In this document: positions 2,646 to 40,058 of the stretch, in pieces
Position numbering within the stretch: position 1 is the first letter of the stretch
Layout of the letters: each line of letters opens with the position of its first letter
Origin: an uncultured Bacteroidales bacterium
GTDB lineage: Bacteria > Bacteroidota > Bacteroidia > Bacteroidales > UBA4417
DNA: 48,859 bases
Reading direction: 5' to 3'
NCBI GenBank assembly: GCA_903887815.1
Contig: CAISRK010000473.1
Location: forward strand, 1 to 48,859
Position numbers and translations under genes: made by a program
The notes under the pieces: model-generated
Seen by the model: the letters and a program-made list of their open reading frames with translations, nothing else
Told to the model about the DNA's origin: nothing
The model's database searches: none

Positions 2646-2699
2646 GAGGTTTGTTTATTTATTGGTTAATTGTCATTTCTATTATAAAATTAACTATTC

Positions 2700-4331: not shown

Positions 4332-4374
4332 TAATTGTTTTTACCATTTATCAAAACCTGCGAGATAAATAAAT

Positions 4375-13761: not shown

Positions 13762-13780
13762 TTAGATTTTTAGCAGCGTG

Positions 13781-14116: not shown

Positions 14117-14254
14117 AGGTTTGAATTTTTATCTCTTATGTTTGTTATTAGAACTTTACGGTCGCTATTGGCTCTTTCCGAAATTTCGACAGTATATTTT
14201 CTTTGATTAATCAAATCTCAGTAGTGATGATTGTATTAAAAAGGAATACTCCGG

Positions 14255-14701: not shown

Positions 14702-14767
14702 TTTAATTGATTTAAGAATTTAAATTCTGTAATAAAATGATGACTTAGTTACAAGGGATTGTTGATG

Positions 14768-16098: not shown

Positions 16099-16119
16099 AG
16101 CTGTAGGATAAACAAGCGT

Positions 16120-16476
16120 TTATTTACCCGTTTTTTTTGACTCTGCTTCGAAAAAGTCAAGAGCCCCGAGAATTTCCTTCAGTATAGCAATATTTTGACG
16201 TACGATTTCGTGCCCCTGGTTCTCACGGGTAAGGTGAAATTCGCGGAGTTCCTTGTATTCGGTCACGAATTTAGGAGTCATTGCAGTAGTGATATCACCT
16301 GTTACCAGGTTGATTTGTGAGCACATACGGTCTTCAGCACTATCCGTAATAATCGAGGTTTTAATACCTGCTGATTCATTAAATGAATATTTGCCCACGA
16401 GGGTGTTGGTTTCGAGGCGCGTCAGGTTCGAAAGGCTAGCCAGGGCCTCCTTCAGGAATGATTTTTTGTCACTCAT
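16120..16476 (-). CDS. Hypothetical small cytoplasmic protein (first gene of a 3-gene operon)
   Basis: 118-aa ORF, 21 nt upstream of the 268-aa ORF. No signal peptide. See the paralogy motifs listed for 15292-16098. Confidence 0.6.
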   Translation of the reverse strand: MSDKKSFLKEALASLSNLTRLETNTLVGKYSFNESAGIKTSIITDSAEDRMCSQINLVTGDITTAMTPKFVTEYKELREFHLTRENQGHEIVRQNIAILKEILGALDFFEAESKKTGK

Positions 16477-16993: not shown

Positions 16994-17632
16994 TCAGCAC
17001 CCGCCGCCCGACCTGGCTTCTTTTTTAACAGGGGCAACCGATTTTTTCACTGGCATTGCAGGCACAGCTGCCTGGCGGCCATTTGCTGGAGAAGTTAGTG
17101 CTTTTAATGCGAGAGTATCGATTAACGGTGTTTCACTCATTTGAGGTAAACTGAGGGTTACCGAGTCGGAGCTGGCCGGATCGAGCTGGGCATAATTTCC
17201 TGTAAATAAAAGCACATTCTTAAATCCTGTCTGATGGAGCATAAGCCATGGACCGTTTGCCTGCTGTTCGGTTTCGCCATAAAGTATTGCCGTCTGACCC
17301 GCTTTTTCGAGATCACGGAAAACCGACTTATTTTTAGGATCGAATAATTCGCGCACCGGGATATTTACCGCATTTTTAATATGGCCAAGTTCGAAAGCTG
17401 CAGAATTCCGGACATCAATAAATAGGGTCTTACCATCACTGTCCTTAAGCAACAAAGCGGCCTGCTGGGGTGTAATAACCAGCGACTGGTCATTCAGCAG
17501 CTGAAGGCTTTCGGTCGGCGAAAGTACAAATTTCAGATCCGGTCTTCTGAAAGTGATCAAACCGGTAATTATAACCAGTACAATAGCAACCACAACGATT
17601 GTAAGCCGGTTAGTTTTCGATAGCTCGTTCAT
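16994..17632 (-). CDS. Membrane-anchored rhodanese-homology protein lacking the active-site Cys, with C-terminal SGGGC tail
   Basis: N-terminal TM (LTIVVVAIVLVIITGLI). Rhodanese fold motifs (LFIDVRNSAAFELGHIKNAVNIP ... FKNVLLFTGNY). The catalytic-loop position is Gly (ILYGETEQQ). A Lys/Pro/Ala-rich linker ends ...KKEARSGGGC-stop, verified in the DNA (tcg ggc ggc ggg tgc tga on the minus strand). Confidence 0.8.
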   Translation of the reverse strand: MNELSKTNRLTIVVVAIVLVIITGLITFRRPDLKFVLSPTESLQLLNDQSLVITPQQAALLLKDSDGKTLFIDVRNSAAFELGHIKNAVNIPVRELFDPKNKSVFRDLEKAGQTAILYGETEQQANGPWLMLHQTGFKNVLLFTGNYAQLDPASSDSVTLSLPQMSETPLIDTLALKALTSPANGRQAAVPAMPVKKSVAPVKKEARSGGGC

Positions 17633-17652
17633 AAGATATTATTTTATGATTA

Positions 17653-18273
17653 TTAACAACCTCCGCCCGATGATGCTCCTGCCGGCTTTTTGGTAACGGT
17701 AACGGCTTTTTTTGTACTTGTAGCTACTTCAGTTTTAGTTTCTGAATTTCCGAAAAAGTGCTGGCAGGCAGCCGAACGGAACTGGTAAAGATTTATTTCT
17801 TCAACCGAAGCCGTTTCCACCGGTTTCACGGCTTTTACAATAGTGCTGAACCAGGTATTTATTCCACCCTGCATCACGTAAATACGTTCCATACCCAGCC
17901 GTTTGCATAGAATCCATGCCTGGTCCGACGTAACATCGGAATTAGAATAAAAAACTTTATCCTTTGCTTTCTGGCCGATTATTTCCCTGGCCGGAGCCGA
18001 CAAAAGCGAATCAACCGGGATATTTATCGCTCCTGGTACCTCAAACGTATTGAATTGTTCTTTTGACCGGACATCAATCAGCAACAAAGCAGGATCCTGT
18101 TTTACAAGCCTGTCGGTTATATCGTCGGTTGAGAGGAATCGCGAAGGATCGTCGATAGCCGCCAGCAGCATTTCAGGCCTGAGTTGTTTGTCAGTATCCC
18201 TTTGAGGCATAAAAAGCATCCCGATTCCGAGAGCAATGATAATGCCGGTTAGTAACAGATATTTCTTATTCAT
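17653..18273 (-). CDS. Membrane-anchored rhodanese-homology protein lacking the active-site Cys, with C-terminal SGGGC tail
   Basis: N-terminal TM (LLLTGIIIALGIGMLF). Rhodanese motifs (LLIDVRSKEQFNTFEVPGAINIP ... IYVMQGGINTW). The catalytic-loop position is Ser (VFYSNSDVTS). The tail ...KKPAGASSGGGC-stop was verified in the DNA. Confidence 0.8.
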   Translation of the reverse strand: MNKKYLLLTGIIIALGIGMLFMPQRDTDKQLRPEMLLAAIDDPSRFLSTDDITDRLVKQDPALLLIDVRSKEQFNTFEVPGAINIPVDSLLSAPAREIIGQKAKDKVFYSNSDVTSDQAWILCKRLGMERIYVMQGGINTWFSTIVKAVKPVETASVEEINLYQFRSAACQHFFGNSETKTEVATSTKKAVTVTKKPAGASSGGGC

Positions 18274-18284
18274 AGGTCCCGGTG

Positions 18285-18878
18285 TTAATACTCAACTTTC
18301 TTAACTTTCTTTTCAACAAATGTTGCTCCGTAGAACATGCCGATGGCTGCCAGGATAAGCAGGAACCCGAAAACGGTTTCACGCATGCCAAGCAAATCGT
18401 AAATTTTTACACCACCCAGGTTACGGCTGTTATAAATGCCTTCGAATAAAGGATATAATTCGGAGAAAATAAATACGCCTATAAACAGGCCGGCACTGAA
18501 AAACATGGCATCGATTTTCCCAATGGCAACACCTGTAAAACTTGTACCCGGGCAAAATCCGCCTAACGCAAATCCAAAACCCATGATAATGCCGCCAATA
18601 ATAGCCGACATAACATAATACGGATTGATATACAGCATGGATGCATCCATCCATCCCATATAATCGAAATAAATTATACCGGTCATTGCTGTTATTGCCG
18701 CAGTAAAGAACACCCGCAAAACCACAAAATCGTAACCGAAAAAGGTACCCATAATTTTGCGCGACGAGGAAAACCCCGATGCTTCGAGTGAGAAACCAAA
18801 GCCAGCACCCAGCAACAATGCAATTACATTGTTCCAGGTTTCGGGTATAACGCCCATTGGAATAAGAGGTCCTACCAT
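18285..18878 (-). CDS. YeeE/YedE family sulfur-compound (thiosulfate-type) transporter, second half-protein
   Basis: 197 aa, polytopic. Conserved GGFCPGTS motif with Cys. Typical two-gene YeeE/YedE arrangement. Confidence 0.8.
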   Translation of the reverse strand: MVGPLIPMGVIPETWNNVIALLLGAGFGFSLEASGFSSSRKIMGTFFGYDFVVLRVFFTAAITAMTGIIYFDYMGWMDASMLYINPYYVMSAIIGGIIMGFGFALGGFCPGTSFTGVAIGKIDAMFFSAGLFIGVFIFSELYPLFEGIYNSRNLGGVKIYDLLGMRETVFGFLLILAAIGMFYGATFVEKKVKKVEY

Positions 18879-18934
18879 ATGTTTTTAGTATTAGATGTAG
18901 TTATGTTAAAAGTTTGTTTTGATTTAAGAATACC

Positions 18935-18995
18935 GATTAACGATTTTAGATTTGCGATTTTTCTGTTCTTTCTGATACTTCTAAAATCGTTAATC
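18935..18995 (-). promoter_or_regulatory. Perfect 15-bp inverted repeat (hairpin) in the spacer between the two YeeE/YedE genes
   Basis: gattaacgattttag (18935-18949) and ctaaaatcgttaatc (18981-18995) are exact reverse complements separated by 31 nt. The loop contains gatttgcgat, a 10-mer also present at 40070-40079. Confidence 0.6.
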
Positions 18996-19002
18996 CTTGT
19001 TC

Positions 19003-19530
19003 TTAAATCCATAGTTTCTTGAAAATCCAGGAAAACACATAAGCTGATCCGAAAATCGCCATCATGGTAATGATTCCCGAAGCCGAAAGTACAGCCATAC
19101 CGCTTAATGCAGCCCCGCTGGTGCAACCGCGTGCGAACTGCGAACCGACACCGAACAGGATACCTCCTATTATAGCCGCCACCAGCCGTTTCCGGCTGGT
19201 AATCTTGGGTGAATGTTCGGTTTTGAACTTCAATCGCCCGTAAAGAGTTCCTGAAAGGAATCCCCCGACAAGCACACCTATAACTTCGAAAACAAGCCAG
19301 TTATTCATCGGGCTGCCTTCGTCGCCCAGGAATTTGCTGTAATATTTGTTATTATCGGCATGAACAGGTGCTACTGCATGAACGGCAGTAACCACAGTGC
19401 TTTTTACAGCGCCGCTGGCACCTAGCCCGCGTCCGGTTATATAATAGGTACTGAAAAGTACCAGGCCCAGCAATACACCACCCAGGTATGGATTGATGTA
19501 AAAGGTACCGTCTCTTTTAAGCTTTTCCAT
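19003..19530 (-). CDS. YeeE/YedE family sulfur-compound transporter, first half-protein
   Basis: 175 aa, polytopic. Motifs ITGRGLGASGA and FARGCTSGAALSG with a conserved Cys. Confidence 0.8.
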   Translation of the reverse strand: MEKLKRDGTFYINPYLGGVLLGLVLFSTYYITGRGLGASGAVKSTVVTAVHAVAPVHADNNKYYSKFLGDEGSPMNNWLVFEVIGVLVGGFLSGTLYGRLKFKTEHSPKITSRKRLVAAIIGGILFGVGSQFARGCTSGAALSGMAVLSASGIITMMAIFGSAYVFSWIFKKLWI

Positions 19531-19704: not shown

Positions 19705-19739
19705 CCCTAACCCCTAAAACCTAACCCTCAACCCCTAGT
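19705..19739. repeat. 5 x 7-bp CCCTAAN array (G-rich on the transcribed minus strand)
   Basis: ccctaac ccctaaa acctaac cctcaac ccctagt. It overlaps the psrC stop codon (19735-19737). Confidence 0.8.
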
Positions 19740-20676
19740 ACAAATACCGTGTTATCTGCCCAGCTTCCACCATGATGAACCTAAAAATAAGGCCTCCAAA
19801 AAGTATAAAAACAGCAGGAATTATGATTGGCATTTTGTAACCTATAAGCTCCAGTACCTCAAGTATAGCAGGGAAGATCAATCCCAGCAAAATCACAAAC
19901 ACAAAGAACGGAACGGTAAACTGCCCGCCAAGGAAAAGATTGGCTGCATTGATCTGCACCTCGGATCCTGCAAGGAAACCCATGATCATGTGGGTGATAA
20001 AAAACAGTTCGACTACGATAAAAAGGAGGTCGAGGCGGCTTATGATCCTCCGTTCCTCGTGGCTTTTACTCATAAGAATAATGCAGGCTGCCCCGGTCGA
20101 CATACCCGACACCAGGAACAACGGCCCGAGAATGGTTGTATTCCACAATGGACGTGCATTAAAGGCCGAAAGAAGTATACCTGTATAAATCCCGAGTATA
20201 ACGGCATAAATAGCCATAGGCCAGGCGATATACCAACGGTTTCTGATAACCCAGGCTTCGAATGTATACAGGAATTTGAATTTCCAGTCCCAGTTTGGGA
20301 ATACTTCCCTGATATAACTTGCCGACCAGATTATCGAAATCGGGGTCATGATCATTAAAACCCAGGCGCCCCAGCCCATAGGCGATTCGAGGCGGATGGT
20401 TGTGTACAACTGCCAGAAATACATCTTATGCTTCAGATCGAGGAAAAGCATAAACAAGCCTATTATAAGAGCAAACGGTACCAGGAAAGGCGCCCATTTC
20501 ACCGTAGCAGGCATTTCTTTTTCTTTTCCAAGGATGGTATAAACCCCGGCGAGGAAGAGTATTCCTGCGGCCAGTCCTCCAAGGAAAAGGTAAATAGGTA
20601 TCTGCCAGTGCCATATATGCAGGTAAGGGTCAATATTGGGAATATTGCGACCGCTTACAAATAATTCTTCTTTCAT
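19735..20676 (-). CDS. psrC: NrfD/PsrC-type polytopic quinol-interacting membrane anchor of the molybdoenzyme
   Basis: 313 aa with about 8 predicted TM helices, directly downstream of the 4Fe-4S subunit. Size and position match PsrC/PhsC (NrfD family). Confidence 0.8.
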   Translation of the reverse strand: MKEELFVSGRNIPNIDPYLHIWHWQIPIYLFLGGLAAGILFLAGVYTILGKEKEMPATVKWAPFLVPFALIIGLFMLFLDLKHKMYFWQLYTTIRLESPMGWGAWVLMIMTPISIIWSASYIREVFPNWDWKFKFLYTFEAWVIRNRWYIAWPMAIYAVILGIYTGILLSAFNARPLWNTTILGPLFLVSGMSTGAACIILMSKSHEERRIISRLDLLFIVVELFFITHMIMGFLAGSEVQINAANLFLGGQFTVPFFVFVILLGLIFPAILEVLELIGYKMPIIIPAVFILFGGLIFRFIMVEAGQITRYLY

Positions 20677-20700
20677 AGTTTTCTGTCTTTGCGCTAACGG

Positions 20701-21234
20701 TTATACTAAGTAGAAAATCTGTGGTTTTGTTCCGGCTTCGGGTGCAAGTGCCTTGAATTTCCTGTTTTTCAATACATTGACAATTTCCGAATTGGGATCT
20801 TCAAGGTCGCCGAAATACATGCAGCTGGTTGGGCAAACGCTGACACAGGCAGGTTTCTCGCCTTTGCGAACGCGATGGATACAGAAAGTACATTTATCAA
20901 CATACCCGTCAGGATGCGAATATCTGGCTTCATACGGGCAGGATTCGATGCAGGCGCCGCATCCGATACATTTGTTGTGAGTTACAAGTACAATTCCCCC
21001 ATCCTCAAAATGGCTTGCACCTGTCGGGCAGCAACGCACACAGGGTGAATTGTCGCAGTGGTTACACCGTTCCGACCGCAGTTCGATACTTACATTCGGA
21101 TAGGTTCCATCAACGGTTTCGCTAACCCAGTCGCGGCAGAAACCTATAGGGACATTGTTTTCGGTCTGGCAGGCGACCACGCAGTCGCTGCACCCCACAC
21201 ATTTGCGGGTATCTATAGCCATTGCATATCTCAT
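20701..21234 (-). CDS. psrB: 4x[4Fe-4S] ferredoxin-type electron-transfer subunit
   Basis: Four Cys clusters: CVGCSDCVVAC, CNHCDNSPCVRCCP, CIGCGACIESCP and CTFC...CVSVCP. The start overlaps the psrA stop (ATGA at 21231-21234). Confidence 0.9.
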   Translation of the reverse strand: MRYAMAIDTRKCVGCSDCVVACQTENNVPIGFCRDWVSETVDGTYPNVSIELRSERCNHCDNSPCVRCCPTGASHFEDGGIVLVTHNKCIGCGACIESCPYEARYSHPDGYVDKCTFCIHRVRKGEKPACVSVCPTSCMYFGDLEDPNSEIVNVLKNRKFKALAPEAGTKPQIFYLV

Positions 21235-23477
21235 GACTCGGTCTCCTTTCGCGGATCGTCCTTAATAAAAGTTATAAAATTGCCCCGCATACCGGTGCCA
21301 CCCATTATAGGGTCGATCATCACATTGGTAATCATCTCGGTATCATTTGCACCGCGGCCGTAAGCCAGGTGAAGCGGTTTATGGTGATGCCCGAATCCGT
21401 GAACGATATAAACCGAATCCCATCGGATCCGTTCGGTCAACCTTACTTTTACAGGGAATTTCGAAATTTCGCCATCCTGGTTCTTAAGCCAAACATACTG
21501 GTCCTTCTTAAATCCCCATATGCCGGCTACCTGCGGGTTAACCCAAACTGAATTTTCGGGCATCAGGGCAACCAGGTTGGGGTTGTTGGCGGTACGGCTA
21601 AAGGTATGCATAGGAGCCCGGCCGTATATGAGGCGGTAAAATCCTTCCTCCGGTTCAGGATGTTTTGTAAATAAAGGCATAGGGTCGAAACCGGCTGCGG
21701 CGAGTTCGTGCGAAAACAACTGAATCTTACCCGAGGCAGTCTTAAAAATATGAGGTGTTCCCGGTTCAATATAGGGTGAAGTTTTGCGTGCAATCTTTTT
21801 CACACCAATACGCTGCATTTCGGCAAGTGAGGATCCAACCTGTTTCAACTGCCAGTCAAGCACTTCTGTATACTCTTTATAATTGAAGAACGCAGCAAGG
21901 CCAAGTCGTTCACCAAGTTGTTTGGCTATCCACCAGGCTGGCTTGGTTTGGTTTTTAGGATCAACTGCCGGCATGCGAAGTCCCAAAGTTGGTTCGCGGT
22001 GCGCTGTAGTGCGGATGTCGTCGTATCGCTCAAGATATGTACATTCAGGAAGAACCACATCAGCATAGCCTGTAATCTCCATTGGCATTGTATCAACAAC
22101 AATCAGAAGATCAAGCGATTGCAGGGCTTTCTTAAACTGCTCTTTTAATGGAACCGTAGATACCAGGTTTGTACCAGCTACAACCCAGCCTTTAATTTTT
22201 GCTTCCTGTCCTCCCGCGGGACTTGAAGCTTCAATTACCAGGTTGGTTGGAGCTTCGTTGGCCAATGGATAATTTCCGTTCAACAGGTCTTTCCAGGTCC
22301 AGGCGGGTTTAGGATATTCGGGATGCGGGAATTCAGGTATTTTTATTCCTTCTTTAAAGAATATTCCACCCCTGTTCCCCCATGAACCCAGGAGTGCGTT
22401 CAGAATAGCAATTGCCCTTGTACGCTGGACGTCATCACCATACCAGGCTGTATGGCGGCCCGGATGAATTATAGTTGAAGGTGCAGCGTTTGCCATTTCA
22501 CGTGCAGTGCTGCGGATAAGATCAGGTTTTAAAGTGGTAATGCCATACGCCCATTCGGGGGTGAAGGAGACAACATGCGCTTTCAGTTCCTCGAGCCCTT
22601 CGGCATTGGCTGCAACATATTCTTTGTTGTACAAATCATCATAGATGAGTACATGTATCCAGGCAAGTAAAAGTGCTATATCTGTCGATGGTTTTATAGG
22701 CAGCCAGTATTTCGATTTTGAGGCGGCAGTCGAAAGACGGGGATCGACCGTAATGATAACGGCACCGTTGTCGATAGCCTGACTCATTTCCTGAACCTGC
22801 CCGTTATGCATGTTTTCACCTATATGGGAACCGATAAGGACAAGGCACCGGGTATCGCGTATGTCGGTAACTTCGGGACTGCTGACCGATTCCCCGAAAG
22901 TTGCTTCGAAGCCTACATCGCGGGCCCCGCGGCATTGTGCAAACGAAGGAGCAGCCATATTGCCCGTGCCGTAAGCTTTCATGAGATGTGTCAGGTAGTT
23001 GGCCGGGGATCCGTGCATGAACAGAGCCATGCTTTCGGGACCATACTTGGCTTTCATATCCGACATTTTTGTGGCTACAAAATCCAGGGCTTCGTCCCAG
23101 CTGGCTTCGCGGTAAGTTTGTTTTCCATCCTTAATCACCCGCAATAAGGGGGTTTTAAGCCGGTCGGGATCGTTATACATTCCAACACCACCGGTACCGC
23201 GCGGGCAGAGTTTGCCGTTGCACTGGGGATCGTCGTAATTCCCGGTGATTTTTTTAATATTCCCGTCTTCGGTAACATGAGCCCAACCGGCACATTTCCA
23301 GAAACACACCTCGCAATAGGTTGGGTAGCGGTGAAGCTTCTCCTTGCCTCCACCGGTCATCGCCAAAAGATCATCCAAAACAGTTGATCCAAAGGTATAA
23401 CGTGAGATCCCTGCACCCAGTGCCAGTGTTCCGGCTCCCAAAGCTGAAATTTTAATAAAATCTCTCCTTGTCTTCAT
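21231..23477 (-). CDS. psrA: Periplasmic Mo-bisPGD oxidoreductase catalytic subunit, polysulfide/thiosulfate reductase (PsrA/PhsA) type
   Basis: Tat signal MKTRRDFIKISALGAGTLALGAG. I placed the start at this Met (23477) rather than the ORF-track start at 23519. N-terminal FeS motif CEVCFWKCAGW...CPRG. About 748 aa, as for PsrA/PhsA. Followed by psrB and psrC. Confidence 0.85.
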   Translation of the reverse strand: MKTRRDFIKISALGAGTLALGAGISRYTFGSTVLDDLLAMTGGGKEKLHRYPTYCEVCFWKCAGWAHVTEDGNIKKITGNYDDPQCNGKLCPRGTGGVGMYNDPDRLKTPLLRVIKDGKQTYREASWDEALDFVATKMSDMKAKYGPESMALFMHGSPANYLTHLMKAYGTGNMAAPSFAQCRGARDVGFEATFGESVSSPEVTDIRDTRCLVLIGSHIGENMHNGQVQEMSQAIDNGAVIITVDPRLSTAASKSKYWLPIKPSTDIALLLAWIHVLIYDDLYNKEYVAANAEGLEELKAHVVSFTPEWAYGITTLKPDLIRSTAREMANAAPSTIIHPGRHTAWYGDDVQRTRAIAILNALLGSWGNRGGIFFKEGIKIPEFPHPEYPKPAWTWKDLLNGNYPLANEAPTNLVIEASSPAGGQEAKIKGWVVAGTNLVSTVPLKEQFKKALQSLDLLIVVDTMPMEITGYADVVLPECTYLERYDDIRTTAHREPTLGLRMPAVDPKNQTKPAWWIAKQLGERLGLAAFFNYKEYTEVLDWQLKQVGSSLAEMQRIGVKKIARKTSPYIEPGTPHIFKTASGKIQLFSHELAAAGFDPMPLFTKHPEPEEGFYRLIYGRAPMHTFSRTANNPNLVALMPENSVWVNPQVAGIWGFKKDQYVWLKNQDGEISKFPVKVRLTERIRWDSVYIVHGFGHHHKPLHLAYGRGANDTEMITNVMIDPIMGGTGMRGNFITFIKDDPRKETES

Positions 23478-23547
23478 GTAGCATTTTAATTTGGCAATCA
23501 AATACTTACTGATGCACATCAGCCTTTTCTGATTGTTTATTGAATAA

Positions 23548-23842: not shown

Positions 23843-24304
23843 ATGTTTCATGGATTCAAAATCTTCATAGTTTTGACAATTGATAGTACCGCCTTGGAAC
23901 CTCAGAAATACATTAACAGGAAAACTTTTTTACGGCTGTCTGCAACTGCTTTGGCTGTTGCGTTTCTTGCATTATGGGACAGGCTTACCAACCGCCAGAA
24001 AGTACTGCTTGAAAGCCCGGTAATTACCAGGCTTAATACAGCTACACTCGGAACAGGCACCTATCTGTTCGAAAGGTTTATTGTTTATAAATCAGCCGAT
24101 TCCCTGAAAATCTTCTCAAATAAGTGTACCCATGCCGGCTGCCGGATAAACCAGGAACTGGAAGGACAACTTATCTGCCCCTGCCACGGTTCCCGGTACG
24201 AAGCTGCTACCGGGAAAGTCGTTCAGGGCCCTGCAGGGCTTGATCTGCCTTCGATTCTATTTACATCCGATACAAAAACCGGCGAAATCATTATAAGATT
24301 CTGA
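23843..24304 (+). CDS. Rieske [2Fe-2S] protein, bc-complex type
   Basis: Box I CTHAGC and box II CPCHGS, including the disulfide Cys pair typical of Rieske/cyt b complexes. N-terminal hydrophobic anchor (FLRLSATALAVAFLALW). The exact start is uncertain. Confidence 0.85.
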   Translation: MFHGFKIFIVLTIDSTALEPQKYINRKTFLRLSATALAVAFLALWDRLTNRQKVLLESPVITRLNTATLGTGTYLFERFIVYKSADSLKIFSNKCTHAGCRINQELEGQLICPCHGSRYEAATGKVVQGPAGLDLPSILFTSDTKTGEIIIRF

Positions 24305-24306
24305 AT

Positions 24307-27027
24307 TTGAAAATTCCGGAAACCATAAAAAAGCTAATAGCGTTCGACACGTATGGGTGGATTGCCACTGCATCCATAATACTGTGTGCCGTATCCGGAG
24401 TTTTACTCGTGGTGCCTTATGATGTGGCAAATCCTTACCTTTCGGTTACCCGGCTTGTAACTGCAAATCCGGCTGCCTCACTGGCAAGGAATATACACTA
24501 CTGGAGCGCACAGCTGTTTCTGATCCTGACACTTATACACATTTTCGACCATCTGAGGGGAAATACTGAAACCAACATCAAGAAGAAAAGTGTATGGTTA
24601 AGGCTGACACTTTCCATACTATTTTCTCTTTATGTTATGCTTTCGGGGTTTATACTGAAAGCCGACGGCGACAGCCAGCAGGCGCATCGCATACTTTCGT
24701 CGCTTATCAGCAGCCTGCCTTTGATAGGGACTTTGCTGAAGCAGACATTTATCGGCCCGGAAGGGAATTTCCAGGTTCTGTATATACAACACGCTTCCAC
24801 AGCCACCATTATACTTTTTATAGTAATCATGGAGCACGCACGGAGCCTGAAAGTGAATACGTCAACCCTGCTGATTACGGCTGTTATAATTGTCGTCTTC
24901 AGCTTTCTTTTCCGCGCACCCGTTAACGGGTTAAATGATGCCGTTATGAAAGGGCCCTGGTATTTTGTCGGGTTACAGGAAACGCTCCACTGGGTTTCGA
25001 ATCCGCTCATGGTTTCGGCTGGATTACTTATACTTCTTGCCTTGATATACCTTGTTCCATGGGTGAAACCAATTTATAGCAGGTTAATCAAACGGTTTTT
25101 TGTTGCAATGATCCTGCTTTACGTGATGCTAACCCTGGCAGGGTTTTTCTTCCGCGGGCCAATGTGGCAATGGCAATGGCCCTGGGAAAAGCAGTATAAG
25201 CCGCAGACCTTTTTGTACCCTGAGAAAATCAGCTTTTCAGCCGCTGATACAGCACAGCTTACTATAATACAGGGACATGCCGAGGGTTGTGTTTCGTGCC
25301 ATAAAGGAATGAGTGGCTTTTCGGATGCACACCAACCTGAATATATCGGCTGTTATTCATGCCATGGCGGCGATCCGCTTACGCTTAACAAAACCAAAGC
25401 ACATGCGAAAATGTTCGCATTTCCGGGCGACTTATCCAACGCTGCCGAAGCCTGCGGAAACCAGGGTTGCCATCCTTCAATAGTGAACCGTGTGGACAAA
25501 TCGCTTATGGCCACGCTGGGTGGCATAATAAGTGTCGATAAATGGGTTTTCGGTGAAACCTCCGACCTGAACAGCCGCGAGCATGTCGATGATATAGGGA
25601 GTACAGCAGCAGGAACCCATTTGCGGAATCTTTGTGCCGGCTGCCACCTTGGGAACGAGAAAACTAAAACCGGCCCCGCTGCCTGGCTTGAGAGGGGTGG
25701 CGGATGCCTGGCCTGTCATCTCACTTATGATAAAAAAGCGTTAAGTACTTTGCAGCAAATGAAGAAACGACAGGCAGGCGATACTTCGCTTCCCATGTTC
25801 CACCCGGCACTGGACCTGAATATTACAAACGATAAATGCAAAAGCTGCCACAGCCGTTCAGGTCGCATATCGATGAACTATGAAGGATGGAACGAAACCG
25901 GGTTAAAACCTGAGGATGTTAAAGGAAAGCAGAACTACCAGGTTTTGCCCGATAAACGTGTATTTGCAAAAATGCCCGATGATATCCACCATCAGAAAGG
26001 AATGCTGTGTATCGACTGCCATGGCTCCTTAGAACTTATGGGCGATAGAAAACTTTATTCACACAAGGAAGATGCTGTAAAAATACAATGCAGCGACTGC
26101 CATACGAGAAAGGTTAACAACCAGATTTACCTGGTATCGGCCGATCGTGAAACCCAGCTTATTTCGTGGTCGCGGAAATACAAAGCCGAGGGAGTACAGG
26201 TATTAGCCACACAAAAGGGGCTTTTCCCTCTTGTTAATACTATAGTTGAAGAACAAGGTTCCCGTTTAAGCCTGATTACAAAATCCGGTTCAGGTATTAT
26301 TGTAATGAAACCGCCTGCAAGAGCCTGTACCGAAGGCAAAGCCCACGAAAGGCTGAGCTGCGATGCATGCCATACATCATGGGCACCGCAATGCATTGGC
26401 TGCCACAACAGCTATGAAAGCCAGACTGCAGGATTCGATATGCTGCAAAACAAAATCCGAAAAGGCACCTGGATTGAATATGCCACCGAAGGCGTGGCTG
26501 ATTTACCCGTACTGGGGATTAATGCAACGGATAAAACAAAGAAAAACGGCCAGGTTGGCACTTTTACCCCTGGAATGATTCTGACTATTGAAAAAGGATC
26601 TTTTACCAAAGGAGAAAAAACGGTCTTTCACCGTCTGTATGCCCCTTCGTCGGCACATACAACTCAACGGAAAGGAAGGAGTTGCAAATCGTGCCACAAC
26701 GAACCGCTGGCAATAGGCTACGGAAGAGGAAAACTGGTGCTTTCAAAAGAAGGCCGCTGGACATTCGAACCTTTATTCGAAAACAACAGGTGCGATGGAT
26801 TGCCCGAAGATGCCTGGACCGGTTTCCTGAAGGAACGGAACGATCAGGCGGCAACGCGCATAGGGATGAGGCCGTTTAACCTGTCCGAACAAAAGAAAAT
26901 TCTTACCGCAGGAGCCTGCCTTACCTGCCATAAAGAAGATTCAAAGGTGATGAAAGAAGGCCTGCAGAATTTCGAGGCAGTTTCCGGGAATATGAGAGCG
27001 GTGTGCGTAAAACCAAGGTTTGATTAA
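24307..27027 (+). CDS. Cytochrome b6 + subunit-IV-like membrane domain fused to a periplasmic multihaem (about 12 haem) c-type cytochrome
   Basis: TTG start 2 nt after the Rieske stop. 7 predicted TM helices. R61xxH64-x13-H78 in helix B and H162-x14-H177 in helix D. PWYF (217-220) sits at the PEWY position. Residues 328-885 carry 11 CxxCH motifs (CVSCH, CYSCH, CAGCH, CLACH, CKSCH, CIDCH, CSDCH, CDACH, CIGCH, CKSCH, CLTCH) plus CGNQGCH (Cx4CH). Confidence 0.85.
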   Translation: MKIPETIKKLIAFDTYGWIATASIILCAVSGVLLVVPYDVANPYLSVTRLVTANPAASLARNIHYWSAQLFLILTLIHIFDHLRGNTETNIKKKSVWLRLTLSILFSLYVMLSGFILKADGDSQQAHRILSSLISSLPLIGTLLKQTFIGPEGNFQVLYIQHASTATIILFIVIMEHARSLKVNTSTLLITAVIIVVFSFLFRAPVNGLNDAVMKGPWYFVGLQETLHWVSNPLMVSAGLLILLALIYLVPWVKPIYSRLIKRFFVAMILLYVMLTLAGFFFRGPMWQWQWPWEKQYKPQTFLYPEKISFSAADTAQLTIIQGHAEGCVSCHKGMSGFSDAHQPEYIGCYSCHGGDPLTLNKTKAHAKMFAFPGDLSNAAEACGNQGCHPSIVNRVDKSLMATLGGIISVDKWVFGETSDLNSREHVDDIGSTAAGTHLRNLCAGCHLGNEKTKTGPAAWLERGGGCLACHLTYDKKALSTLQQMKKRQAGDTSLPMFHPALDLNITNDKCKSCHSRSGRISMNYEGWNETGLKPEDVKGKQNYQVLPDKRVFAKMPDDIHHQKGMLCIDCHGSLELMGDRKLYSHKEDAVKIQCSDCHTRKVNNQIYLVSADRETQLISWSRKYKAEGVQVLATQKGLFPLVNTIVEEQGSRLSLITKSGSGIIVMKPPARACTEGKAHERLSCDACHTSWAPQCIGCHNSYESQTAGFDMLQNKIRKGTWIEYATEGVADLPVLGINATDKTKKNGQVGTFTPGMILTIEKGSFTKGEKTVFHRLYAPSSAHTTQRKGRSCKSCHNEPLAIGYGRGKLVLSKEGRWTFEPLFENNRCDGLPEDAWTGFLKERNDQAATRIGMRPFNLSEQKKILTAGACLTCHKEDSKVMKEGLQNFEAVSGNMRAVCVKPRFD

Positions 27028-35054: not shown

Positions 35055-35853
35055 TTACGATACATATTTTGGTAGCACAATAATTGAAGAGATGGAATCC
35101 TGCCGCCCCCTCGGCCACAAGCTCAAACATTTTACCGGCATCGGTAATGCGGGTTGAACCAATAATATTCACGCCTTTTGCAAAAAGCACATCAGGAAGC
35201 AGGCCGCTTGTGGGGCCGACCAGTATCACTTTTGTGTCCACGGGAATAATTTCAAGCAGGCGGTCAAGGGTATCGTTAGCCAGCGAGGCACCCGTAATGA
35301 TCACAATATCGGATTGTGCGATTACAGCTTCAGATTTTTCAAGCGGCACATAGTATTGGCGATAGTGATCGGGTACAGCATTTTCGTTCAGTTCAACTAT
35401 TTTCAGGACCGAATTGCTCTGCGATATTTTTTTTATGTACGATAAAAAAGCGCCAACCACGCATATCTGCTGCTTCTGCGCAAGATCAATTAATCCGACA
35501 GGATCGGCATTTTCAATAATCGTATAACCTTGTCCATTAACCAGTCCGGCCGAAAGGGCATTCATAGCCGCAAGCTGCACTGTCCTGACCAGGCAGGGCG
35601 GATCAGCCAGGTCAAATAAATCAGCGACCTTTTGTCCGGTAAAGTTTCCGGGTGTAAAACTGCCAAATCCCCTGTTGCGGTTATGGGTGCACGAATCAAG
35701 CCTGTCGGTTTCGTTTGAAGCAAGGCCGCAGTAACCGTTCGATAATTTTATAGCTGTAAGATAAATACCGGCAACAAGTTTTTCGATGGTGATATCATTA
35801 AACTCCCCGCTGTAACCCGATTTTATGATTTCTAAAGTTTCGTCAAGTATCAT
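35044..35853 (-). CDS. DUF4213/DUF364 (putative heavy-metal chelation, Rossmann-like) protein
   Basis: 269 aa. N-terminal VAGIYLTAIKLSNGYCGLAS-type segment and a C-terminal Rossmann-like half (ICVVGAF...DIVIITGASLANDTLD...VILVGPT), typical of this family as I recall it. Confidence 0.65.
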   Translation of the reverse strand: MILDETLEIIKSGYSGEFNDITIEKLVAGIYLTAIKLSNGYCGLASNETDRLDSCTHNRNRGFGSFTPGNFTGQKVADLFDLADPPCLVRTVQLAAMNALSAGLVNGQGYTIIENADPVGLIDLAQKQQICVVGAFLSYIKKISQSNSVLKIVELNENAVPDHYRQYYVPLEKSEAVIAQSDIVIITGASLANDTLDRLLEIIPVDTKVILVGPTSGLLPDVLFAKGVNIIGSTRITDAGKMFELVAEGAAGFHLFNYCATKICIVNEP

Positions 35854-36022
35854 GTAAGTACTTTATTCAATGCGAATACCCGTCGACCGATTGTATGTAT
35901 TTTACTTTGGACGGTTTAATAAGCTTATATCGGTTTTTGCCGTAAAATTATGACTTTGGAACGAACTTCTGTAAACAAAATGTTAGTTGAACAGGCATAA
36001 ATGAGTGCGCCAAGCATTAAAA

Positions 36023-36046
36023 AAAGCTGCCCGACCGGGCAGCTTT
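36023..36046 (-). terminator. Rho-independent terminator of the rhodanese-porin operon
   Basis: Stem aaagctgccc / gggcagcttt with a 4-nt loop, 23 nt past the stop at 36069. It is followed on the minus strand by tttttttaatg. Confidence 0.75.
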
Positions 36047-36068
36047 CAATTCAAACCTCAATCAAACA

Positions 36069-36923
36069 TCACTTCACCACCGGGTTTTCGGGCACCGAAG
36101 CCCATTCAGCATAAGCACCTGCATAAAGCTTCACATTCGGAAAACCGGCAATCTCTTTCAGTGCAACATATACAACCGCAGCTTTAATACCTGTCTGGCA
36201 GTAAACAACAATATTCTTTTCGGGGGTTGCTCCTGCTTTAGCCGCAATTGCTATAATTTCATCCTTTGTTTTATATGCACCAGTTGCCGTAAGCATATCT
36301 TTATAGTAAAGGTAAACAGCTCCAGGCAAATGGCCCTGGCTTTTTTTCTCCTTGTCCATTCCATTGTATTCATCGGGTTCGCGCACATCAAGCAAAAGTG
36401 CTTTCGGGTTGCTGCCCAGGGTCTTAACCGAAGCCATATCGATGTTCAGGGCAGGGTTGAGGGAAAGAACAAACGAAACAGCTTTGAGTGCAACAGGAGC
36501 CGAGGTCATAGGGATTCTAGCAGCCTCCATTTGTGCCGGATCCTTATGAAGCAGCCAAACATCATTGGCCCCCAAGTATTTAAGCACCCACCAAACACGG
36601 CTGTTATACTTCTGGGATCCATCGTCGTATAACACAATTTTAGCCGTGTTGCTTACACCTTTTTTGCCAAAAATGGCAGCCAGTTCTTCAGGCGATAAAA
36701 ACTGGCCTTCGATAGCTCCAGTTTTGTACAGGCTTTTATGCGCGATATTTACTGCTCCCTGTATATGCTGTTTTGCATAAACATCAGCAGCCTGCACATC
36801 GATTATAACCATGGCCTTGTTGCTCTTAAGTTCGGCTGCGAAATCCTTTGCCGAAACCGAAACCTGTGCTTTCGCTGACAACAAAGCCACACACGCCAAC
36901 AGTATAAGTATAGTATTTTTCAT
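36069..36923 (-). CDS. Periplasmic tandem-rhodanese sulfurtransferase (thiosulfate/3-mercaptopyruvate type)
   Basis: Sec signal (ILILLACVALLSAKAQ). The N-terminal rhodanese domain is inactive (VLYDDGSQ) and the C-terminal domain is active, with loop VVYCQTGIKAA. Confidence 0.85.
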   Translation of the reverse strand: MKNTILILLACVALLSAKAQVSVSAKDFAAELKSNKAMVIIDVQAADVYAKQHIQGAVNIAHKSLYKTGAIEGQFLSPEELAAIFGKKGVSNTAKIVLYDDGSQKYNSRVWWVLKYLGANDVWLLHKDPAQMEAARIPMTSAPVALKAVSFVLSLNPALNIDMASVKTLGSNPKALLLDVREPDEYNGMDKEKKSQGHLPGAVYLYYKDMLTATGAYKTKDEIIAIAAKAGATPEKNIVVYCQTGIKAAVVYVALKEIAGFPNVKLYAGAYAEWASVPENPVVK

Positions 36924-36941
36924 GATGCTTTTAATTTACGA

Positions 36942-38066
36942 CTAATTAATTTTTACCTGTAACTGAATGTAGAACAGATCATTGGAGGTTTCGTTGTAGT
37001 TGACAATATCAGTCGATGAGCTCGATTCAATATTGTAGAGGTAGTTGATCTGCACGCGGGCCCAGTCGTTCGGGTAATAATTAAGCCCGAAAGTCATTGT
37101 GCTAACCCTGTAAGCGGTATGATCGAAATCTTCCTTATCCATATCGGGATCGTATGTTTCGTACTTTACAAGAGGCATAAGTTTCCATGGCGTGTTGTAC
37201 ATAAGCTGGGCGTAATATCCATTGCTTTTGAAGTTACCAGCAACAAGTTCGGGGGTGGCACCACAACCTCCTCCGATAAGTTTCGATCCTTTATCCTGCC
37301 CGAACACATATTCAGCCTGGAAGATGAAATTGTATTTTTTCAATGTAAGGTCAGCTCCCCAGCGCATGCGTTCGTCCATATCTTTAACAGTAGGGTCGGG
37401 ATTTACGGCTTTACCGAACTGGTAGCTGCCACCAATGCTGATGGATTCGAATGGAGCTATGACTATACGGCCTATTATATCTTTAGCCCTGTCGATGTCC
37501 AGTGTATTTTTACCGGTACCGTTTGTGACTGACAGCGAATACGAAAGTAAATTTTCTTTCTCCAGTCCAAATATTTTAGCTGTTCCGCTTGTACCGCTAA
37601 CCATGATACCCAGGTCGCGGTCGGGCGAAGTAAGTTCATTTACCACTTTTGAGCGGTTAACGGTGTACAAATCCTGGCATCCCGTGGCTCCCAGTTCAAG
37701 TCCGAATGGTTTTTTAAACTGCCCCATCGAAATTTTAAACCAAGGTTTAAAGCGGTTATAAGTTATGAAAGCATCGAGCAGGTACGGCCCATTCTGGAAT
37801 GTACTCAGTTCGGCGAGTACATAGTACGAAAAGTCGTAAGGGATGTTCCCAGCCACACCAATCCTGGCCCTGCGGAAGCCGAAGCTCATTTGATTTTTTG
37901 ATGTCCCGTCGACATTATCGCCCAGGATTGAATATTTGAATTCCGGCTGTATGTACCCGATTATTGTCGGGCCCCCTGTGGAAGACGTCGGCTCCATGCA
38001 TCCCTGGGCGAAACTGTATGCCAATGGCAGAACAAATAAACTGACTATAATAAGAACTTTTTTCAT
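36942..38066 (-). CDS. Outer-membrane porin (OprO/OprP-like beta-barrel)
   Basis: I moved the start to Met17 (38066), giving signal peptide MKKVLIIVSLFVLPLAYSFAQ. Alternating beta-strand pattern, FGFRRARIGVAGNI motif, about 370 aa. Confidence 0.65.
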   Translation of the reverse strand: MKKVLIIVSLFVLPLAYSFAQGCMEPTSSTGGPTIIGYIQPEFKYSILGDNVDGTSKNQMSFGFRRARIGVAGNIPYDFSYYVLAELSTFQNGPYLLDAFITYNRFKPWFKISMGQFKKPFGLELGATGCQDLYTVNRSKVVNELTSPDRDLGIMVSGTSGTAKIFGLEKENLLSYSLSVTNGTGKNTLDIDRAKDIIGRIVIAPFESISIGGSYQFGKAVNPDPTVKDMDERMRWGADLTLKKYNFIFQAEYVFGQDKGSKLIGGGCGATPELVAGNFKSNGYYAQLMYNTPWKLMPLVKYETYDPDMDKEDFDHTAYRVSTMTFGLNYYPNDWARVQINYLYNIESSSSTDIVNYNETSNDLFYIQLQVKIN

Positions 38067-38129
38067 GGTATTAATTTTAAAAAAGGGAAGACAATGTCCC
38101 CCCCTTTGATTCAATATCCGATCTGCCTT

Positions 38130-39143
38130 TTAATTTGCAACAACGGCCCAGTTTTTGGGTCCAGGGTAAACTGTTTTTTTAGCAGTTTTCAGGGGATCGT
38201 ATACCAGGTGGTTTGCTCCAAAACCTATACTCTTGGCATTGTATCCCAGCACATTCAGCCAGAATATTGCTATACTCGAAGTCTGGCCGGTATAACAATA
38301 TACCTGTGCAGGTTTCGACGGATCGATTGTCTTTACAAGGTCGCCTGCAAGCGAAATCACGGGAACATCAAATGCGCCGTTGAAATGGCCGAGAGCGGCA
38401 TAATCAGCTGCTGACCAATAATTAATAATCTGGTAATTAGCCGGGGAAGTGAGCACATCAGCTCCAGCTGTTGTTGAAAAACCAGCTGTTAGAACCGCCT
38501 GTACACGTTCAGCTAGGATGGCTGCTCCATCTGTTGAAGTTGATGTCCAGACAGGTTCGGTGAATGTACCATTGGCCGGAGCAGCCGTAGTTACCCAGTT
38601 TGAATTAGCCACTGCAATATTGCCGTTGGCTGCAGTTTCAAATCCCGAATTACTAACCCATGGTCCTTTGTAGGATGCATTCCAGCCAGCCATACCCCAT
38701 TTTAATACAACAGCATTCTTCCAGCCCAGAAGACGCATTGCCATTACAGCCTGTCCGGCAGTTTGGCCAGTGTAACAAACGACAAGGATTTTTGCATCTT
38801 TTGCCAATGCAGCGGTAGTAACGGTTGTAATAATGTCTTTCAATGCCACATTGGTTGCATTTTTAATATGACCTGTACCATAATCAGTTGCCGAACGAAT
38901 ATCGTAAATGGTATAACCTGGGATAGTACCAGTAATCGAGTCAACAATTCCACCCATATTTGTTGATTTGGGATCTACAATCCAGCTTGTAGCAAGCGCA
39001 GGCAAATCGAGATTATTGGTCACCATGTATGTTTTCAGGGTGAGGTAAGCATTTACTACTTCCGGTTGATCTTTTTTACATGATGCCAGGAAGAGCATTG
39101 GAACCAGTGCCAAAAACAATGCAATTTTGATTAGATTTTTCAT
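38130..39143 (-). CDS. Lipoprotein with two catalytically competent rhodanese domains
   Basis: Lipobox LFLASC. Two active-site loops, LVVCYTGQTAG and QVYCYTGQTSS, each followed by the rhodanese helix. Confidence 0.8.
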   Translation of the reverse strand: MKNLIKIALFLALVPMLFLASCKKDQPEVVNAYLTLKTYMVTNNLDLPALATSWIVDPKSTNMGGIVDSITGTIPGYTIYDIRSATDYGTGHIKNATNVALKDIITTVTTAALAKDAKILVVCYTGQTAGQAVMAMRLLGWKNAVVLKWGMAGWNASYKGPWVSNSGFETAANGNIAVANSNWVTTAAPANGTFTEPVWTSTSTDGAAILAERVQAVLTAGFSTTAGADVLTSPANYQIINYWSAADYAALGHFNGAFDVPVISLAGDLVKTIDPSKPAQVYCYTGQTSSIAIFWLNVLGYNAKSIGFGANHLVYDPLKTAKKTVYPGPKNWAVVAN

Positions 39144-39301
39144 ACAGTTTGATTTTAAGATTTTACGTGAACTTGTTATGAATTGATTGATTGAATTTTA
39201 TATTGTTATTCGATTCACAAAGCTATTCTCAAACAGAGTCATTTATAAAAGTTGCTATACGGTTTACAATTGCAAAAAAACTGCGCTTCGTCAATAAAAA
39301 C

Positions 39302-39315
39302 ATGATGCAAATCAT
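39302..39315. promoter_or_regulatory. Perfect palindrome ATGAT-N4-ATCAT (CRP/FNR-type core) in the divergent promoter region
   Basis: atgatgcaaatcat, read directly, 51-64 nt upstream of the Crp/Fnr gene start. The TGAT-N4-ATCA core matches the FNR/CRP consensus. Confidence 0.35.
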
Positions 39316-39365
39316 AATATAATACATTTACTTTGTACTTTTAACCACAATATAATACTCTACCA

Positions 39366-40058
39366 ATGTCGTTAGCAGGCCCTGAAACGTGTGTTTCGTT
39401 TATATATGAAATTTCCTGTTTCGAATTGCTTACTCCTGAAGAAAAGGAATTAGTGGATTCGCGATCAGTTCTGGTAAATTATAAGAAAGGCGAGAACATT
39501 TGCAAACAAGGTTCGTTTGCATCGCACATTATGTACCTCGAAAAGGGATTGGTAAAGATTTTTCTGGAAGGCAACCCGAAGGACCTTATTTTATCGGTCA
39601 CTCCGCATAAAAACCTTATGGGGCTCCAGGCTCTTTATGAGGGCAACAATACTTTTCTATACAGCATAAGTACCTATACCGAATCCGTTGTGCGGTTAAT
39701 TGATATCCAGATATTCAAACAATTGCTCAAACAGAACCCTTTGTTTGCCTTCCGGATCATTAATATACTGAATGAAAGCACTTCGCAGTCGTACGGCCGT
39801 TTCTTCAGCCTCACGCATAAGCAGTTGCATGGCCGCCTGGCCGACATTTTGCTGTGTCTTTCGAGGAAAATATTTAAAGCCGAAACTTTCGACCTTCCTA
39901 TTTCACGCAGCGACCTGAGCGACCTTACCAGCATGTCGACCGAAAGCGTAATCCGGATTATGAAGGATTTTAAAGATGATGGAATTATTGATATTAATAA
40001 TAAAACCATAACCCTGGTTGATGTACCAAGGCTCGACAGGATCAGTGCTAAAGGTTAG
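39366..40058 (+). CDS. Crp/Fnr family transcriptional regulator
   Basis: N-terminal cNMP-binding-like beta-roll (YKKGENICKQGSFASHIMYLEKGLVKIF) and C-terminal HTH_Crp (ISRSDLSDLTSMSTESVIRIMKDFKDDGII). Confidence 0.85.
   Translation: MSLAGPETCVSFIYEISCFELLTPEEKELVDSRSVLVNYKKGENICKQGSFASHIMYLEKGLVKIFLEGNPKDLILSVTPHKNLMGLQALYEGNNTFLYSISTYTESVVRLIDIQIFKQLLKQNPLFAFRIINILNESTSQSYGRFFSLTHKQLHGRLADILLCLSRKIFKAETFDLPISRSDLSDLTSMSTESVIRIMKDFKDDGIIDINNKTITLVDVPRLDRISAKG

Follow-up and report, generated by a model that had tools for sequence, protein, structure and literature searches.

How do sulfur compounds cross the outer membrane to reach an enzyme that works in the periplasm? The question is raised by a 48,859-nucleotide stretch of DNA from an uncultured Bacteroidales bacterium (contig CAISRK010000473.1 of assembly GCA_903887815.1), the whole of which we refer to as the window. 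Here, a gene for an OprP-like porin lies between the genes for a double-rhodanese lipoprotein (rhdLipo) and an exported tandem rhodanese (rhdP284), and the same genome encodes a periplasmic molybdoenzyme of the Psr/Phs type, PsrABC. The explanation that we hold to be probable, with some reserve, is that this trio of genes specifies an outer-membrane entry station for sulfane-sulfur anions, which feeds the periplasmic Psr enzyme and whose pore is chemically reactive. An earlier note on this DNA had proposed a capture, channel and relay system for polysulfide, thiosulfate or elemental sulfur (S0); it overlooked the three invariant cysteines of the porin and the cysteine/selenocysteine position that one of them occupies in loop L6. 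Accounts of sulfur respiration still have a gap where insoluble or anionic sulfur species must get through the outer membrane, and the trio supplies concrete, mutable candidates for this passage.

The three genes are read from the reverse strand in the order rhdLipo (38130..39143, 337 residues), porin (36942..38066, 374 residues) and rhdP284 (36069..36923, 284 residues), with intergenic gaps of 63 and 18 nt. The porin start was taken at the ATG at 38066, as in its homologs, and not at the TTG at 38114. The unit closes with an intrinsic terminator on the same strand at about 36018..36047, made up of a GC-rich 11-bp stem, a 4-nt GUCG loop and a U7 tract (z = -3.0). On the other side, a divergent control region (39144..39365, unstranded) separates the trio from a gene for a Crp/Fnr-family regulator on the forward strand (39366..40058; cNMP_binding and HTH_Crp_2 domains). 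The co-directional genes, terminator and divergent regulator are all present as the earlier note had described them, and its gap lengths needed only a trivial correction of counting, from 15 to 18 nt, the 63 nt being right. Its description of the three products also stands: a lipoprotein with a LASC lipobox and two rhodanese domains that both keep the catalytic cysteine (CYTGQT twice), a β-barrel porin of about 370 residues, and a tandem rhodanese exported by the Sec pathway with one inactive and one active domain.

The assignment of rhdLipo draws on its lipobox, Pfam matches, homologs and an AlphaFold2 (AF2) model. Its signal peptide ends in the lipobox L-A-S-C, in which Cys22 (codon 39078-39080) is the lipid-bearing residue, and the CYTGQT motifs lie at Cys123 (codon 38775-38777) and Cys283 (codon 38295-38297), all on the reverse strand; the three cysteines are invariant in 25 homologs. 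The first domain scores 70.9 bits against the Pfam Rhodanese family (PF00581). The second scores 18.9 bits alone and is an internal duplicate of the first (33% identity, E 4e-8). Judged by these sequences, both domains are predicted to be catalytically competent. The AF2 model is confident, with a predicted local distance difference test score (pLDDT) of 91.8, and places the rhodanese folds in a non-classical mutual arrangement, the template-modelling (TM) score of the whole chain against tandem rhodaneses being only about 0.3.

The residues that follow the lipid-bearing cysteine bear on the location of this protein. The surface-export signal of Bacteroidota lipoproteins has been defined experimentally as C-X-K-(D/E)2-X (PMC5080379). 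In most homologs of rhdLipo, these residues are K-K/E-D-E-P-E, and the family consensus, CKKDEPE, matches the signal; a relative 93% identical to the window's protein has CKEDEPE. Because the acidic stretch matches the export signal, the surface side is favoured and rhdLipo is probably displayed on the cell surface. The gene varies in copy and form: it is tandemly duplicated in loci L069 (9196-11079, reverse strand) and L070 (6079-7914, forward strand), and in L055 (5120-7006, forward strand) it appears as a single 629-residue fusion with four domains.

The second gene product was assigned from Pfam, an AF2 model and an alignment of homologs. It matches Pfam Porin_O_P (PF07396) at 73.7 bits, with a gathering threshold of 20.9, over residues 66-388 of a 390-residue open reading frame (ORF). 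The AF2 model has 16 main strands (pLDDT 79, predicted TM score 0.77), and its top Foldseek matches in the Protein Data Bank (PDB) are OprP (2o4v) and OprO (4rjw), with E 3.6e-14 and TM 0.69. When 27 homologs with 41-95% identity to the window's copy were aligned, Q21-G22-C23, C130, G266-G267-C268 and several Arg and Lys residues proved invariant. The three cysteine codons lie on the reverse strand at 37998-38000 (Cys23, in the mature amino-terminal tail 'QGC'), 37677-37679 (Cys130) and 37263-37265 (Cys268, TGT, in a 'GGGCG' turn). In the model, Cys130 falls in the long loop that connects strand 5 to strand 6, predicted to be L3, the constriction loop of porins, and Cys268 at the tip of a hairpin of two 18-residue strands, predicted to be loop L6. 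Counting strand parity from both termini, we infer that L6 is external and that the amino-terminal tail is periplasmic. Bacteroidota favour Gln after the signal peptidase I cleavage site, a preference that the Gln of Q-G-C at the mature amino terminus fits.

A profile of the alignment was searched against 1.84 billion representative proteins (clustered at 50% identity). The 16 best full-length matches all have the Cys-Cys-Cys pattern, and the cysteines vanish below about 300 bits, Porin_O_P proteins with lower scores being without them. Because the top matches carry the three cysteines and the lower-scoring ones do not, the signature marks a discrete clade of porins. Two anomalous forms of the porin were seen: a metagenome protein (P0105) with a clean deletion of the L6 hairpin, cysteine included, and a gene in genome G163 (C5:27948-28837) that is broken by a TAG codon and is probably a pseudogene.

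The trio travels as a unit. A scan of species-representative genomes gave 26 close loci, in metagenome-assembled genomes of Lentimicrobiaceae and Bacteroidales with porins 68-95% identical, and the arrangement of rhdLipo, porin and rhdP284 divergent from the crp gene is kept in all 26. When 201 Bacteroidales genomes were evenly drawn, 31 contained a strong porin homolog, which lies directly 3' of an rhdLipo homolog on the same strand in 30 of them; the remaining one is at a contig end. Thirty loci were also fetched from other Bacteroidales families, and among the 27 that could be evaluated for the third gene a tandem rhodanese follows the porin in 22, is missing in four and lies a few kb away in one. 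The three-gene order read by the earlier note in a single genome is therefore conserved in close loci (26/26) and elsewhere (22/27), and the arrangement, which recurs in more than 50 genomes of many families, is far beyond chance. Most members of the clade belong to Bacteroidales: 401 sampled genomes of this order include 55 porin carriers in 34 genera, and in a 401-genome sample of the phylum, which is dominated by aerobic isolates, only two carriers were found outside Bacteroidales, among 400 other Bacteroidota genomes.

The Crp gene, divergent at every close locus, is nearby at most of the others. The regulators encoded divergently from the trio have conserved amino-terminal cysteines (e.g. 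...SCTVSNAKCICFDLL...; C9 and C18 in the window's protein) and may be redox or persulfide sensors.

Membership of Porin_O_P, the OprP-like fold and the public annotation of homologs as 'phosphate-selective porin' would fit an ordinary phosphate or general anion porin, placed by chance between rhodanese genes and with cysteines of structural significance. The earlier note had named a well-defined phosphate or anion porin with unrelated neighbours as the result that would speak against its proposal. What we found is that the three-cysteine clade always stands beside rhodanese genes, an adjacency that is invariant in the more than 50 genomes, and that the cysteine signature is specific to the clade. 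No pst or pho neighbours were seen at any fetched trio locus. Distant Porin_O_P loci (L027-L039) have no rhodanese neighbours; most adjoin VTC/polyphosphate-type genes, and their porins lack the cysteines. The rhodanese association is, for this reason, specific to the three-cysteine clade. Together with the replacement of one cysteine by selenocysteine in six genomes, described below, these observations leave the chance placement of a phosphate porin very improbable indeed.

At the position of Cys268, the porin genes of six genomes from four GTDB families (G118 and G637; G093 and G725; G682; G662) have a single in-frame TGA, in the context ...GG[G]-TGA-[G/D]G.... After it come 95-100 conserved codons, which run to a TAA and include the usual carboxy-terminal Phe strand. 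SelB exceeds the curated cut-off in all six genomes. A tRNA-Sec that passes the gathering score is present in five, and in three of these it shares a contig with selB; in the sixth, selB is at a contig end. The window's porin is of the cysteine form and its host genome has neither SelB nor tRNA-Sec; both are absent from the cysteine-form genomes G000, G106 and G165, and G620, another genome with the cysteine form, has both, which is nothing remarkable. From codon, context and machinery, the L6 position reads as a cysteine/selenocysteine pair. Three further representatives from the profile search end at ...GG just ahead of this position, and public gene calls contain an annotation error, in that selenocysteine-form porins are truncated at the UGA. 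In the literature searched, we found no paper on a selenoprotein porin and none describing a porin with a cysteine/selenocysteine site.

Hairpins begin 11-17 nt downstream of the UGA. Four of the six selenocysteine-form genes have a perfect stem of 6 bp or more, versus 5 of 50 cysteine-form genes, and L071 and L072 retain the stem despite different sequences. Two other accounts of the TGA were rejected. Codon reassignment does not agree with one TGA per porin gene, with true stops that are TAA, or with rhdLipo matches for which, in the TGA-form genomes of the 201-genome sample, no in-frame stop was reported. Pseudogenes would not be expected to share the codon across four families, to keep it within genera and to have the downstream third intact.

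The third protein, rhdP284, carries a signal peptide. Its N-domain has Asp in place of the catalytic cysteine, and its C-domain has the motif CQTGIKA with Cys242 (codon 36198-36200, reverse strand), invariant in 40/40 homologs. It scores 112.3 bits against Rhodanese PF00581 in two domains and is a two-domain rhodanese of the SseA/RhdA type, with the architecture of 1urh and 1e0c, the former being closest (E 7e-26). It falls short of the SseA model (NCBIfam PRK11493) at 110.9 bits against a cut-off of 250, and it is an exported protein.

The sulfur enzyme of the window lies 12.5 kb from the trio, on the same strand. The psrABC genes (19735..23519) encode a Tat-exported molybdoenzyme of the Psr/Phs type, an FeS subunit and an NrfD anchor. 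PsrA is closest to Thermus thermophilus PsrA (2vpw, E 3e-191) and to PhsA, and has a twin-arginine signal (RRDFIK). Because this signal makes PsrA periplasmic, its substrate must cross the outer membrane, and PsrABC is likely to be the periplasmic consumer of the trio's sulfur. The next genes on the reverse strand (16994..19530) encode a split YeeE/YedE transporter and two membrane-anchored rhodanese-like proteins. A Rieske protein and a cytochrome b/12-haem fusion similar to ExtM/N/O/P are encoded on the forward strand (23843..27027).

Elsewhere, trio and enzyme are joined outright. In loci L053, L054 and L078, rhdLipo, porin, rhdP284, psrA, psrB and psrC form one contiguous, co-directional string, and in seven loci (L005, L011, L013, L016, L017, L052 and L069) the trio abuts Rieske/cytochrome b-multihaem genes, in some cases with psrA or mobA; five close relatives show such an arrangement, psrA included. 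Across the 201-genome sample, a PsrA homolog (E <= 1e-80) is found in 21 of the 31 porin genomes versus 38 of the 170 without the porin; related genomes are not independent, so we give counts only. The co-occurrence with psr that the earlier note had looked to is thus borne out, in these counts and in the three fusions. Its proposal that the trio feeds a Psr/YeeE system is supported, within limits: the Psr link is frequent and not obligate, Otr-like or YeeE/Hdr-like partners being used in the other 10 of the 31.

In four Psr-less loci (L044, 1837-12680, reverse strand; L046; L048; L049), the trio belongs to a cluster with a YeeE gene (Sulf_transp) and a small rhodanese lipoprotein, and is followed by genes for a small rhodanese, a DsrE-like protein, MvhD, two HdrA-like proteins and one that resembles HdrC; L049 has TusA as well. 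In two others, from two families (L050, 6581-8964, reverse strand; L055, 14-4521, forward strand), it comes after an octahaem cytochrome c that matches 1sp3 (E 3e-116) and is accompanied by a subunit of the cytochrome b561 type and by a small rhodanese with a Cys tail. We take 1sp3 to be the octahaem tetrathionate reductase Otr of Shewanella. With this cytochrome, the kinds of terminal enzyme that go with one and the same outer-membrane module come to three, and what the partners have in common is S-S bonded anions, namely polysulfide, thiosulfate and tetrathionate. Distant Porin_O_P genes without rhodaneses lie directly 5' of psrB-psrA-like genes in L033 (2857-8925; 'bacterium', unplaced), where a multihaem cytochrome follows, and in L036 (5980-10381; Candidatus Glassbacteria). 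These may represent an independent pairing of porin and molybdoenzyme.

Might the same hardware serve the opposite purpose, exporting or re-importing polysulfide or S0 made in the periplasm during sulfur oxidation or disproportionation? Clusters with YeeE, TusA, DsrE and Hdr-like genes are usually read as oxidative, and the presence of the trio within them, together with AprA in G106, is consistent with this. In the window's genome, however, AprA and DsrA were not found, and the sole evident sulfur enzyme near the trio is a reductase of the Psr/Phs type; moreover, trio and psrABC form one co-directional string in three genomes. We consider an oxidative role improbable.

The two rhodanese-like proteins of the window (16994-18273, reverse strand), encoded 3' of psrABC-yeeE, have no active-site cysteine and end in ...SGGGC, and in clusters of the YeeE/Hdr type the small rhodanese lipoproteins flanking the trio terminate in ...GGCGG, ...GGCGD or ...GGC. 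Such Cys-tailed small rhodaneses were seen at L044:10963-11439 and L044:7528-8031 and in L046, L048, L049, L042 and L059. Since the same motif is found in the tails of small rhodaneses, in the tails of the window's proteins and at the L6 tip, a glycine-embedded cysteine recurs on flexible elements of the system, the porin loop among them.

This motif bears on whether the porin itself takes part in sulfur chemistry. The protein could be a passive anion channel with a redox switch, a disulfide or selenenylsulfide between L6, L3 or the N-tail, which opens the pore only under reducing, sulfidic conditions and leaves all sulfur chemistry to the rhodaneses. Three invariant cysteines in mobile elements (N-tail, L3 and L6 tip), one of them a cysteine/selenocysteine site in a Gly-rich flexible turn, would suit such a switch, and the divergent Crp/Fnr regulator suggests control by anoxia. 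Amino-terminal plugs are known in other porins, e.g. VhChiP, and VhChiP is among the structural matches of the porin. Selenocysteine is nevertheless rarely selected for a purely regulatory disulfide, and GGCG(G) is also the carboxy-terminal tail of the neighbouring small rhodanese-like proteins, where it seems to form a sulfur-carrying arm. A channel that is only gated is on balance unlikely.

The entry-station model that we favour goes beyond the observed anatomy, conservation, sulfur-enzyme linkage, invariant cysteines and cysteine/selenocysteine exchange, in that we infer the exposure of the lipoprotein at the surface, the identity of the substrate, its movement inward and any covalent chemistry that the pore performs. 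The double rhodanese, on the surface beside the porin, would capture sulfane sulfur as cysteine persulfide, with polysulfide/S0, thiosulfate and tetrathionate as candidate cargo. The OprP-type anion channel would admit these species and would not be chemically inert: the nucleophilic cysteine or selenocysteine of L6 and the cysteines of L3 and the N-tail would most likely bind, open or exchange S-S substrates, or redox-gate the pore. The periplasmic tandem rhodanese would then take the sulfur to whichever enzyme the genome has, in the window's genome Tat-exported PsrABC, as Sud serves Psr in Wolinella, and elsewhere YeeE or an Otr-like enzyme. The Crp/Fnr regulator would control the unit.

Several observations weigh against the model. 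The window's own rhdLipo begins CKKDQPE and so has one of the two acidic residues of the export signal. The L6 tip has a pLDDT below 50, and the placement of the cysteines in space comes from strand counting in one model. Folding energy downstream of the codon does not differ between selenocysteine-form and cysteine-form porin genes (p 0.34), and the hairpins are only suggestive as selenocysteine insertion sequence elements. PsrA is missing from 10 of the 31 porin genomes, and the AprA of G106 indicates that in this host the sulfur may be bound for a pathway in the cytoplasm that is possibly oxidative. Finally, it is conceivable that the porin cysteines form a disulfide or selenenylsulfide gate instead of carrying sulfur.

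A more radical version has the porin as a sulfur-transferring protein. Attack by the L6 thiolate or selenolate would fall on S8, on polysulfide, on thiosulfate or on the surface rhodanese's persulfide, and sulfur would pass to Cys130, to Cys23 and on to the periplasmic rhodanese. We would give this little weight as a full account. If true, it would amount to a covalent chalcogen bucket brigade through a β-barrel; the porin would be the 'thiol-bearing outer-membrane protein' long postulated to mobilise elemental sulfur, and the first porin to be a selenoprotein.

Whatever the chemistry, uncultured anaerobic Bacteroidales from lakes, sediments and digesters commonly carry the trio (55 of the 401 genomes sampled), which may make it relevant to sulfur cycling by organisms that usually pass for fermenters. 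The only sequencing run listed with this DNA in full is a lake-water metagenome, which may be its source, and no RNA run is listed. What sets the window apart is that its own genome provides the Psr context and that relatives fuse the trio directly to psrABC.

Other genes accompany the trio. Downstream of it in the window (33309-35853, reverse strand) are genes for a DUF364/DUF4213 protein and for a membrane domain of about 385 residues fused to a THEP1-type NTPase. The pair recurs just downstream of the trio in L001, L003, L008-L010, L012, L021, L043, L056 and L070; two of these loci, L043 and L070, have the membrane domain alone, directly after the porin, where rhdP284 is missing. This domain has no Pfam match, and its protein-atlas leads are weak (like an energy-coupling factor T-component or a Gx-transporter; scores 0.76-0.79). 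A 412-residue QueA-like protein (31968-33206, reverse strand; Queuosine_synth, 328 bits) is encoded next; compared with the profile of 322 positions, it contains an insertion. Its gene is linked to the trio and mobA in several families (L001, L002, L056, L069 and L074), and directly follows rhdP284 in L056, L069 and L074. Further away, downstream of the sulfur operon, is a protein with a Tle1-like phospholipase domain of the type VI secretion system (12644-16476, reverse strand; 287 bits), adjoined by five small ORFs without Pfam matches; it appears unrelated to the trio. An ordinary SusC/SusD pair with a lectin/PNGase-like protein sorted by the type IX secretion system (T9SS; 135-7695, reverse strand) and a large PKD/CHU_C T9SS protein (8907-12209, forward strand) are typical Bacteroidota surface machinery.

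Comparison with known systems places the trio closest to ExtH-ExtI of Geobacter, a rhodanese-like lipoprotein and a weakly OprP-like porin with a single cysteine, encoded in the cluster extHIJKLMNOPQS (PMC5877670). The ExtH-ExtI genes lie beside MccSep/ExtKL, a periplasmic selenoprotein polysulfide reductase essential for S0 respiration, whose authors stated in 2026 that the outer-membrane route of polysulfide is unknown (PMC13510729). In both systems, the lipoprotein gene is directly 5' of a Porin_O_P-like barrel, and an enzyme that reduces S-S bonds in the periplasm and a Rieske/cytochrome b and multihaem module adjoin; the 906-residue cytochrome b/haem fusion of the window scores 246 bits against ExtM, with weak matches to ExtN/O/P. 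Both pairs are candidates for the passage of chalcogens through the outer membrane. A 2019 study by Jahan et al., to go by its title, reportedly deals with the role of ExtI in selenite uptake and the localisation of ExtH.

The two are nevertheless separate, as judged by NCBIfam model scores and the ExtI paper. The window's porin scores 36.6 bits against the ExtI equivalog (NF040900, cut-off 150), over residues 71-175 only, and similarly weak matches are found in unrelated Porin_O_P representatives. Against the ExtH equivalog (NF040901, cut-off 200), rhdLipo has no match at E <= 0.01 and rhdP284 scores 47.7 bits in one domain. The ExtI model found nothing above its cut-off in the window's genome, five other locus genomes or 14 control genomes. 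Unlike ExtI with its one cysteine, the trio porins have three invariant cysteines, of which one is a cysteine/selenocysteine site. The trio also adds a third gene, for the periplasmic tandem rhodanese, and its terminal enzyme is PsrABC, Otr-like or Hdr-like, not MccSep. It belongs to Bacteroidota, and its lipoprotein has a putative surface-export signal of that phylum. By analogy, then, the trio would work as ExtH-ExtI does but forms a separate clade.

The same comparison suggests that the trio might take up or detoxify oxyanions of selenium or tellurium, with rhodaneses that handle selenium and a Psr-type enzyme that is a selenite reductase. ExtI has been implicated in selenite and tellurite reduction and uptake (PMC5877670), its model is the sole NCBIfam match of the window's porin, and the cytochrome b/multihaem fusion matches ExtM/N/O/P. 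Some lineages place selenocysteine in the porin itself, and Psr-like enzymes and rhodaneses are chalcogen-promiscuous, MccSep also turning over selenite (PMC13510729). The ExtI score is, however, far below its cut-off and no better than that of unrelated Porin_O_P proteins, and the trio is intact in genomes without SelB or tRNA-Sec, the window's among them. Its partners, moreover, are sulfur systems: a PsrA closest to that of Thermus and to PhsA, a cytochrome of the Otr type, and YeeE/TusA/DsrE/Hdr-like proteins. A function in selenium or tellurium metabolism is on these grounds quite improbable, and sulfur entry remains our preferred explanation.

The porin resembles two phosphate/diphosphate-specific Pseudomonas aeruginosa porins, OprP and OprO (2o4v and 4rjw), in its family (PF07396), 16-strand barrel and conserved basic residues. 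It differs in sequence (identity of about 20% or less in structural alignments), in its three invariant cysteines and selenocysteine variant, and in its context of rhodaneses and sulfur enzymes in place of a phosphate-starvation regulon. Sud of Wolinella succinogenes (1qxn) is, like rhdP284, a periplasmic protein with the rhodanese fold, and rhdP284 would likewise serve a Tat-exported Psr; the similarity is weak (E 4.4e-7), and Sud is a single-domain homodimer whereas rhdP284 has an inactive and an active domain in one chain. We know of no outer-membrane partner for Sud. SusC is a 22-strand TonB-dependent transporter with a Plug domain, and SusD a TPR-like lipoprotein that binds glycans. The likeness to this pair drawn by the earlier note fits in its logic, a probable surface lipoprotein with a putative export signal encoded beside its outer-membrane channel, and is otherwise loose: the channel of the trio, a diffusion porin of 16 strands, lacks Plug, TonB_dep_Rec and TonB box and so is not TonB-dependent, and the lipoprotein is a double rhodanese enzyme. 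Lastly, the porin shares with cysteine/selenocysteine redox proteins, including selenoproteins of the rhodanese type, a UGA aligned with an invariant cysteine, found only in SelB-bearing genomes and set in a Gly-rich motif (GG-U-G) that recalls reactive selenocysteine sites; unlike in those proteins, the carrier is an outer-membrane β-barrel.

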